Assembly (NCBI GenBank): GCA_038870635.1
Contig: JAVZJR010000004.1
Coordinates: forward strand, 1 to 64,000
Direction: 5' to 3'
Length of the DNA: 64,000 bases
Source of the DNA: Candidatus Bilamarchaeaceae archaeon
GTDB lineage: Archaea > Micrarchaeota > Micrarchaeia > Anstonellales > Bilamarchaeaceae
Every line of letters starts with the position of its first letter. Within the stretch, counting starts at the first letter, position 1. Position numbers: made by a program. Below, piece after piece: positions 42,001 through 45,000 of this stretch.

Positions 42001-45000
42001 AATACTTTTTGCGAGAATATTCTGCTAGAAGTTAAGTTTGTTCCTGCAGAAGGGTTCAAAGAGACTTCAAAAAAATAAGTTTGTTTTGTTTGCTTTTCTA
42101 TGGGGGAAGTTGCTACCTCTTTTAAAATCTTTTGTTTTATTTTAGGTATGGAGAGAGATGAGAAAAGGGATTTTGTTTCTCATTCTGAATTTTTAATTTA
42201 GAGGTGTAAAAATGGATAGAAGAATTGTTTTGCCAGGTGAAAAGATAGCCGAAGGCAAGTTTAGGATTCCTAATACCTATGTAGAAGGAGAAAATATCTA
42301 TGCTACGCTCGTTGGTTTTATTGATGAAAACAATCGATATGTACCAATAGAAAAAAGGTACAAACCAGAACCAGGCGAGCTTGTTGTGGGTGTTGTTACA
42401 GATGCTAGACATGCTGGTTATAGCGTAGATTTAAACTTACCTACAGAAGGTTTTATATCTACAAAATTTATGCACGCGACTCTTATGCTTGGTGATATGG
42501 TAATTGCTAGAATTCGTTCTATAGAGAGAAATGGTGTTATTGAATTGACTGATATTAAGAGACTGCCAAAAGGGAAAATAGTAACTTTTCCATCAGCTAA
42601 AGTGCCACGTTTAGTGGGAAAGCAAAATAGCATGCTTGATATAATAAAAAAATACGGTGGCGGGGATGTTGTTGTAGGTACTAATGGATATGTATGGATA
42701 AGTGAAAAGGCGAATATCCCCTTAATACTTAAGGTAATGGAACTTATAGAAGAGAAAGCGCATAAGCGCGGCTTAACAGATAGAGTTGTAGACTTCTTTG
42801 AGAAAGAGAAGGCTGCGAGAGCGCAAGGTAAGGTGGTATAATGGGCGCAAAATCTGACGTGAAGCTTATTGTTAATGGAAAGAGAATAGATGGAAGAAGT
42901 TCTGTTGATTTAAGAAAAATAAGAATAGAAGTTGGTGTTATACCTGAGGCTGATGGCTCAGCTTATATAGAGTGGGGCGGAAATAAAATACTATGCGGTG
43001 TGCATGGACCACGTGAATGTATTCCACATCATGAGGCAAATCCATTTAGAGCAATAATAAAATGTAGGTATATGATGTCACCTTTTGCTTCTTTAGAAGA
43101 ACATGGAAAAAGCGGGCCCAGTCGTAGAAGTGTAGAACTCTCAAAAGTTATACGTGAAGTTTTTGAGAATCTTATAATAGCAGAAGAATTTCCAAATACA
43201 GAAATAAACATATACATAGATGTTTTGCAAGCGGAAGGCGGTACCAGGACTGCCTCAATAACAGCAGCGGCAGTGGCTCTTGCCAATGCGGGTATACCAC
43301 TGCGTGATCTTGTTTCAGCAGTATCTGTTGGTAAGGCTGATGGCGAGCTTATTGTAGACCTTGGAAAGTTAGAAGACAATTTCGGCCAATCCGATATGCC
43401 GCTTGCCTTTTCTGCACGAGACAAAAAGATCTTGCTTTTGCAAATGGACGGTCTCTTAACAAAAGAAGAGATAAAAAGAATAATTGAATTGGCAGAAGAA
43501 GCATCTTCTAAAATTAATAAAATTCAAAAAGATGCACTTCAAAGGTACTATTATGAAGAAGAAAGAGATTTTGTTCTATGAGGTGTTTATATGGGTACTG
43601 AAATAAAAGAAATGGTTATGCAAAAAATGCGCGCCGAAGTAATGACTGATCTTTTAGATAGAGGAGAAAGGCTTGATGGTAGGGAATTTGATGAGTATAG
43701 GCCAATAAAAATACAAAAAAATCCCATAACAACAGCAGATGGGTCTGCATATGTGCGTATTGGTAATACTCAAGTTTTAGCTGCTGTTAAATTCGAAGTG
43801 GTTGCTCCTTTTCCTGATCGCCCAAAGGAGGGTGCTTTGATTATGAACGCAGAACACTTGCCAGTTGCCAATCCTTCATTTGAAGCAGGGCCGCCAGATG
43901 AAAAATCCATCGAGATGGCAAGAACTGTTGATCGCGCTATAAGAAGTTCGGAAGCAATAGATTTAAATGAACTTTTCATAGAAGATGGAAAAGTTCTCGG
44001 TATCTTTGTAGATCTTTATGTTCTTGACCACGCAGGAAATTATACAGATGCAGCAACATTAGCCGCAACTGCTGCCTTGTTAAATACAAAAATGCCAAAA
44101 ATTGAGGGCGGAGTTATAATAAGGGGGGAATACAAAGACTATTTGAAGCTAAGGGCATTGCCACTATCGACTACTTTCATAAGGGTAGGGAGACATTGGC
44201 TTGTTGATCCAACTGAATACGAGGAGAAAGTGCTTAATACTCGTCTTACAATTGCGACAACAGAAGAGCACGTTTGCGCTATGCAAAAAGCAGAAGGATG
44301 GGTTACGAAAGATGAGCTTCTTGAAAGAATAGATGTAGCATTTAAAAAAGGTTCTGAACTAAGAAAATTACTTACTATATAGGTGCTTACTTATGAGAAG
44401 CGAGAAGTATGGAGCAAGGATTAGAAAATTATATGATGCTGCCATAAAGGCAAAAAACACACGCTATGAATGCCCAAAATGCCACAAGAAGAATCTTAGA
44501 AGGAAAGGAACTGCCTTGTGGGAATGTAAATCTTGCGAAGCGAGATTTGCCGGCGGCGCATATTCTTTTAGGACAGAAGTTGGTGAAATAGCATGCAGAT
44601 TGATTAGTGAGTATTCAAATATAAAACAATAGGTGTTTTTATGCCCGAATACAAGGACCAAAAAACTGGAGAAGTTGTAAAAATATCAATCGAAAAGGGT
44701 TTCAAGTTTCCAGCAACCGGTGCGAAGGTACTCTTAAAATCAAGACCACCAGTAGCAAAGGAGGTTAGTACTGATTGATAGTTACAACATCAAGGTACGC
44801 GTCGTCCCGAGTTCGAAAAGAAGCGATTGAATTCGCTAATAATAAAAAAGCACTCTATATTGCGAGAGGAAAGAGAACGATAAATTCTATTGTTGATTTA
44901 GCTTGGAGAAAAGGGCATCATTTAATAATCATTTTTAGGGAGAAAAATGGAAAAGTAGCAGGATTTGATGAGATTGAGATAGATCAATGGGGTGACTGGA

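Follow-up and report, generated by a model that had tools for sequence, protein, structure and literature searches.

The window analysed here, a 64,000-nucleotide stretch opening an archaeal contig, contains a gene string in the order rrp4–rrp41–rrp42–rpl37ae–Rpo12–Brix-like–pcc1–prefoldin beta, all on the forward strand. The exosome genes rrp4, rrp41 and rrp42 (42212..44382, +; Pfam ECR1_N/KH/S1 and, twice, RNase_PH) are followed by rpl37ae (44393..44632, +), whose product has its four cysteines. The next open reading frame (ORF; 44641..44778, +) encodes 45 amino acids (aa) with no cysteine and no histidine, and is identified below as the RNA polymerase (RNAP) subunit Rpo12 (RpoP/Rpb12). It starts 8 nt past the rpl37ae stop codon, and a Shine–Dalgarno-like AGGTG (44631..44635, +) lies 5 nt 5′ of its ATG and overlaps that stop codon. 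A Shine–Dalgarno-like 4-mer occurs within 20 nt upstream of 84 of 86 zinc-free Rpo12 genes, a count made without a shuffled control. The Rpo12 stop overlaps by 4 nt a gene for a short rRNA maturation protein, presumably Brix-like (44775..45014, +), with weak matches to PRK00933 and PRK03972 (best E = 7 × 10−5); at 79 aa its product is roughly half as long as the family models it matches, and the gene is absent from the Rpo12-adjacent place in several genomes of the host's own family (f1) and of a second family (f9). Further downstream in the string are pcc1 (KEOPS) and prefoldin beta (45011..45667, +), and Rpo10 (RpoN; 56434..56628, −), an RNAP zinc subunit with intact cysteines, provides an internal control. 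The Rpo12 gene immediately follows rpl37ae in all 143 genomes of the order that were read. In the L152–L201 set, a few hundred bases separate the two genes in families f13 and f14, and Rpo12 lies outside the rpl37ae locus as fetched in f16, f17, f20, f22 and f23.

The identity of the ORF was established by comparing an alignment of 49 cysteine-free genes (A1) with one of 30 four-cysteine genes from other families (A2). Profile–profile alignment with hhalign gave a probability of 98.5% (E = 3.4 × 10−15) over 42 gapless columns, placing the ligand positions at D6, T9, F23 and T26 and the arginine before the third ligand at K22. The Rpo12 tail, K33-x-R35-P-P...T-D, is retained, and its basic C-terminal strand is well conserved in f1 (K33 in 67/67, R35 in 65/67) and in most f9 genomes (14/19 and 13/19, respectively). 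A profile built from four-cysteine sequences alone gave the ORF the best rank of any six-frame ORF in the genome, which is 89.55% complete (E = 1.8 × 10−6; next, 0.063). The best two PDB sequence matches of the ORF are Thermococcales Rpo12 (E = 0.033 and 0.1), and the A1 profile has two PDB matches with E < 0.01, both Rpo12. An initial annotation had proposed this identity from position, tail and a single-family NCBIfam hit, with all four zinc cysteines replaced; each point was borne out, and the NCBIfam search was reproduced, yielding four matches, all to subunit P and all far below cut-off (best E = 9 × 10−4). PRK00398, for instance, gives the protein 18.9 bits where its cut-off is 89, and these models match up to 35 of 99 members. 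A Pfam search of the ORF returned no match, as had been noted, and PF03604 matched 0 of the 99 members at E = 0.01.

No four-cysteine-like paralogue was found by score in a profile search of 56 f1 and f9 genomes, which are incomplete, and PF03604 had no match above cut-off in 63 genomes; its lone match in the present genome falls below cut-off and is to a different protein, encoded on a separate contig. The 45-aa ORF is thus the sole Rpo12 candidate in the genome, and on these alignments we identify it as an Rpo12 orthologue that falls outside the zinc-ribbon model PF03604. JGI auto-annotation names five cysteine-free relatives RPC12/RpoP, while NCBI records label such relatives hypothetical proteins; because of those labels and the blindness of PF03604, genomes of the clade seem to lack Rpo12. 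The idea that the ORF is a decaying remnant, or another small protein occupying the slot, draws on the sub-threshold family scores, the PF03604 failure and the incompleteness of these metagenome-assembled genomes, but is extremely improbable given the hhalign match, the top genome rank, the lack of a paralogue by score, the selection ratios reported below and the JGI names.

We surveyed the distribution of the zinc-free form across Micrarchaeota by reading the gene after rpl37ae wherever rpl37ae was matched, which left out one genome each of f1 and f6. Two CxxC pairs were found in none of 67 f1 genomes from 22 genera: 58 are cysteine-free and nine have a single stray cysteine in the tail. The form is therefore fixed in the host's own family, as originally claimed, and the gene, which had gone unread in one genome of the family, is present in every f1 genome with a read locus. 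Rpo12 is also cysteine-free in 19/19 f9 genomes (seven genera), so that 0 of 86 genes in the two families carry the CxxC...CxxC ligands. Both pairs are kept in 57/57 genomes of the nine other families of the order; the earlier statement that other families retain them holds for these nine, but the exception it gave as a single f9 genome extends to that whole family. In other orders, Rpo12 was found at 36 of 50 rpl37ae loci, with both pairs in 36/36, and five low-scoring genomes read at the profile match also have both.

A search of 251 genomes of the phylum with A2 separated the same groups. Best E values were at least 1.5 × 10−7 in the 56 f1 and f9 genomes (three without a match) and at most 1.4 × 10−9 in 195/195 others, as judged from match scores with few loci read. 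This tally and that of the hairpin pattern described below include two genomes flagged as unpublished (G164 and G275); without them the denominators for other genomes fall by two and the outcome is the same. A database search with the cysteine-free profile returned 121 proteins, of which 119 have no cysteine pair, two have both and none is intermediate. The cysteine-free form appears in records titled Ca. Bilamarchaeaceae (L278, 89% identical) and Ca. Bilamarchaeum (L328), and one such protein labelled Aenigmatarchaeota sits on a 2.8-kb contig and is probably mis-binned.

In a tree of the four large RNAP chains (41 rows, 2,230 columns; FastTree and IQ-TREE LG+G4 quick), f1 and f9 group as a single clade (SH-aLRT 100) that lies among four-cysteine lineages, and the clade was recovered again with SH-aLRT 100 without Rpo2 (40 rows, 1,156 columns). 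Because the two families form one clade, the phylogeny places the loss of zinc ligands as one event on its stem. Within the clade, Rpo12 of f1 genus g4 (L028:1380-1484 (−) and L043:392-496 (+)) is about 35 aa long and lacks the first knuckle. The N-termini are strongly diverged in f9 genera g40 and g43, and the 49-aa protein of g43 (L082, L070, L069 and L116) is nearly unrecognizable save for its last five residues.

The former ribbon is also conserved. In zinc-free Rpo12 (136 pairs), the ribbon part has a within-genus pN/pS of 0.24 and the last 17 codons one of 0.19; the corresponding values for four-cysteine Rpo12 (154 pairs) are 0.22 and 0.23. These ratios are uncorrected and taken over non-independent pairs with synonymous sites near saturation. 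Judged by these ratios, the former ribbon part is still under purifying selection. Zinc-free Rpo12 conserves Y4, G10, F21, F23, P24 and G27 and is 44–45 aa long in 71 of 86 genes; among 67 f1 sequences, T9 is kept in 57, F23 in 64, P24 in 65 and G27 in 66.

Other zinc sites of the same clade are kept nearly throughout. The seven zinc-site cysteine columns of Rpo1N are present in 20/20 rows and the four of Rpo2C in 20, 20, 20 and 19 of 20; L37ae has all four cysteines in 66/67 f1 genomes (one truncated) and 19/19 f9 genomes, and the TFB ribbon is intact in 31/31 rows. These counts bear on a general zinc-sparing programme, in which a zinc-binding version would be encoded at another locus or zinc sites would have been removed across the genome. 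Ligand loss does recur in the order, as in f6 genera g28 and g44, which lost their clamp and L37ae ligands, but for f1 and f9 the essentially intact sites, along with the lack of a paralogue by score in the 56 incomplete genomes and of PF03604 matches above cut-off in 63, largely refute this reading and leave it quite improbable.

Zinc ribbons that persist without their ligands are known in general from the bacterial C-minus (zinc-free) ribosomal proteins L31, L33, L36 and S14, which are mostly regulated paralogues of the zinc form. Here, by contrast, the zinc-free protein is the sole orthologue, and the adjoining L37ae keeps its cysteines. The present Rpo12 resembles archaeal Rpo12 (PF03604 Zn_ribbon_RPAB4; PRK00398; 4QIW_P, 36RO_P and 2PMZ_P) and eukaryotic Rpb12/ABC10-alpha in its slot, length, gapless alignment, knuckle Tyr/Gly and K-x-R-P tail. 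It differs in that the four cysteines and the arginine before the third are replaced, in being invisible to PF03604 and in its association with a clade-specific Rpo2 hairpin.

According to the excerpted text of PMC2680338, the four-cysteine ribbon of Rpo12/Rpb12 is conserved and cysteine mutants are impaired or lethal, the first cysteine being essential in yeast (engineered ribbon mutants; Rubbi 1999 as cited there). The same excerpts state that subunit P binds the wall and protrusion, that a 17-aa C-terminal peptide of Pyrococcus subunit P restores 80% of single-round activity and that a double Cys-to-Ser mutant is loosely bound with 14% activity; together they show a ribbon that is dispensable for promoter opening, with the C-terminal peptide as core. 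Those engineered mutants are severely impaired, whereas the full-length ligand-free form described here is fixed and, by the ratios above, under selection. The RNA polymerases of ASFV and vaccinia have no Rpb12, and the wall and protrusion are flexible in ASFV (PMC10881513, in the sections available); these enzymes indicate that a polymerase of the Pol II type can do without Rpb12 function in its usual form, but the subunit is gone there and kept and remodelled here. Like the initial annotation, we found no report of a natural ligand-free Rpo12/Rpb12 in the literature, mostly at title level and with supplements outside the scope. The words zinc and cysteine are absent from the accessible text of a 2026 survey of the small subunits of archaeal RNAP (PMC13257274), RNA polymerase is unmentioned in that of a Micrarchaeota genomics paper (PMC12892359), and the accessible parts of PMC13443923, PMC7544198 and bioRxiv 10.64898/2026.06.27.734958 held nothing relevant.

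Given its replaced ligand columns, the 45-aa Rpo12 presumably binds no zinc. A second-metal site was ruled out: there is no histidine and no fixed acidic set replacing the cysteines, since position 23 is Phe and position 6 varies among D, E, V, S, I and P. Overall, we put at roughly 85% the probability that the ORF is the cell's working Rpo12 and functions without zinc, an explanation that includes a rebuilt ribbon and an altered partner hairpin. Rpo12 would sit between Rpo3 and the Rpo2 wall and protrusion and would be required for promoter opening, with the conserved C-terminal strand performing the core function, as in Pyrococcus. Because a collapsed ribbon is harmful and the tail is the core, natural ligand loss would need a rebuilt ribbon. 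We consider it likely that the ribbon fold was kept, with the CxxCG knuckles becoming D/E-x-x-T-G and F-P-x-T/S-G turns and Phe23, Tyr4 and Phe21 packing into a small hydrophobic core where the metal used to sit.

Structure prediction, missing from the initial annotation, counts against this explanation as far as model confidence and match significance go. Two AlphaFold2 models have low confidence (mean pLDDT 59.8 and 62.5, a deeper alignment bringing little gain) and place strands at residues 3–6, 12–14 and 31–34. Rpo12/Rpb12 chains are the top six of 16 Foldseek rows (E = 0.23, not significant) and the top three of 48,161 chains by VIA (Z = 3.8, not significant), while the ESM Atlas gave a best score of 0.78 with no informative cluster and no model. 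As these matches are not significant and the models are of low confidence, they suggest, at most, that the zinc-ribbon fold is retained.

The ribbon might instead be vestigial, the N-terminal 28 residues forming an unstructured tether, the C-terminal strand working alone and the Rpo2 hairpin filling the ribbon's space. Low pLDDT, the 35-aa forms of g4 and the diverged N-termini of g40 and g43 would fit, as would the excerpted finding that the 17-aa peptide provides basic functions in vitro and outperforms the Cys-to-Ser mutant (PMC2680338). However, the ribbon part is no less constrained than in four-cysteine forms, its aromatic, proline and glycine positions and its length are conserved and the six best Foldseek rows are all Rpo12/Rpb12 chains. 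We therefore regard a vestigial ribbon as unlikely, although by no means negligible.

A second change maps to the same branch as the ligand loss. Across Rpo2N, Rpo2C, Rpo1N and Rpo1C, 22 columns separate f1 and f9 from the other rows, and seven of these fall in Rpo2N 59–69, a hairpin of 11 residues in the Rpo2 protrusion that is encoded beyond the window (contig C4, near 82,460). Such a cluster arose in 0 of 200,000 draws when the 13 diagnostic columns of Rpo2N were placed at random, and six control groupings have at most two diagnostic columns per 11 residues. The ancestral hairpin reads K-P-x-[VI]-x-E-[AS]-D-[GS], with Asp in 18/18 rows, and that of the clade P-R-[YFH]-[YW]-E-[VI]-[KR]-G-G in 18/19 rows (four further rows lack the region); in short, ExDG became YEV[KR]GGY. 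A DNA pattern for the new hairpin matched 58/65 f1 and 10/14 f9 genomes (68/79 for the clade) and 0/222 other genomes, with no match for a reversed control. The misses comprise seven f1 genomes and all four genomes of g43 (0/4), which is the longest branch and, despite missing the motif, has a cysteine-free Rpo12, a point against coupling. The one Rpo2N read from g43 has a third hairpin sequence, and both g4 genomes with the 35-aa Rpo12 carry the new motif. A degenerate pattern for the ancestral ExDG was discarded as too loose (180 of 201 genomes matched, as did many with the reversed control), and the 18 aligned rows are the basis for the ancestral state.

Rpo2N 59–69 aligns gaplessly to yeast Rpb2 99–109, including E104, D106 and G107. 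We assume that this Rpb2 hairpin touches Rpb12, with D106 near R47; our literature search found no paper with Rpb2 hairpin–Rpb12 residue contacts. The region is assigned to the protrusion in the available portion of PMC3564978. Complex prediction of Rpo12 with Rpo2N, Rpo2C and Rpo3 fragments scored 0.45, against 0.53 for a control, and gave no contacts; it is given no weight in either direction. The Rpo12 arginine before the third ligand is invariant in four-cysteine forms (57/57) and vanishes together with the hairpin aspartate (18/18). In the model we propose, the hairpin would have gained Tyr/Phe and exchanged Asp for Lys/Arg as Rpo12 lost its arginine, and the newly aromatic hairpin may brace the metal-free ribbon. 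That the rewritten hairpin now plays this part is somewhat better supported than the converse, and on sequence grounds the change probably compensates for the loss of zinc.

Because the ligands were lost once, the co-change is also a single event, and coincidence or another partner is possible. Zinc-free Rpo12 could fold unaided, the hairpin change being unrelated or fitting TFB or upstream DNA. Coupling cannot be proved from one common branch, TFB/TBP is close to the wall and protrusion at initiation (excerpts of PMC2680338), and the hairpin varies among archaea with four-cysteine Rpo12, with Gln or His at the aspartate position in Thermococcales. On the other hand, TFB has nine scattered, mostly conservative clade-diagnostic columns, no comparable cluster appears in the six other groupings, and the arginine and aspartate disappeared jointly. 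In Rpo3, no obvious clade-specific change was seen by eye in two windows (22 versus 6 rows). An uncoupled hairpin is thus a serious competitor, but the less probable one, to a hairpin that braces Rpo12. A stronger proposal, which we advance tentatively and hold slightly short of even odds, is a natural interface swap in the assembly platform of the archaeal–eukaryotic RNAP, whereby Rpo12 could lose zinc only with a rewrite of the Rpo2 hairpin that braces the ribbon. If true, it would explain why Rpo12 zinc was kept even in a sister lineage that purged its three clamp sites and that of L37ae, and both lineages would then show that nearly every structural RNAP zinc is replaceable by a D/S-x-x-T-G turn code.

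Taken as a whole, the comparative evidence describes a genuine variant of a universal archaeal–eukaryotic RNAP subunit, ancient and of single origin, that lacks the zinc ligands and is accompanied by a candidate compensating Rpo2 loop. Archaeal RNAP and each of the three nuclear polymerases contain Rpo12/Rpb12. An orthologue without the ligands that is both fixed and under selection would imply that the zinc of this subunit is replaceable. The natural sequences and the candidate loop offer a test of the role of zinc, be it in folding, docking or promoter opening.

Separate ligand losses were observed elsewhere in the order. In f6 genera g28 and g44, all three RNAP clamp zinc sites (Rpo1N and Rpo2C) are degenerate in 5/5 genomes read (L262 (G065), L265 (G093), L342 (G101), L343 (G120) and L344 (G116)), with three more lacking a match. 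Rpo1N site 1 retains its histidine alone, Rpo1N site 2 and the Rpo2C site one cysteine each, and L37ae one of four cysteines in 8/8 genomes; Rpo12 keeps all four in 8/8, and the TFB ligands are kept too. The replacement turns are DKTS, SP[YF][TS] and CAKT-type, and the occurrence of DxxT/S and S-P-x-T turns at other zinc sites supports the turn code proposed for zinc-free Rpo12. This loss of clamp and L37ae zinc is possibly more surprising than a zinc-free Rpo12. An apparently independent loss was found in f8 genome G067 (L267), whose Rpo2C site is without three of four cysteines (DAKT...CMLN); that of f8 genome G081 is intact.

Two further features of the large subunits were noted. Rpo2 occupies one open frame of 1,115–1,142 aa in f9 genomes L251 (G082), L254 (G102) and G106, an apparent re-fusion, and is encoded by two genes in the present genome (G000) and most relatives. 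Across the order, Rpo3 (L203:1354-1911 (−), L210–L237) is about 186 aa with 0–4 cysteines, a length that appears too short for the Fe–S domain of many archaeal Rpo3 proteins.
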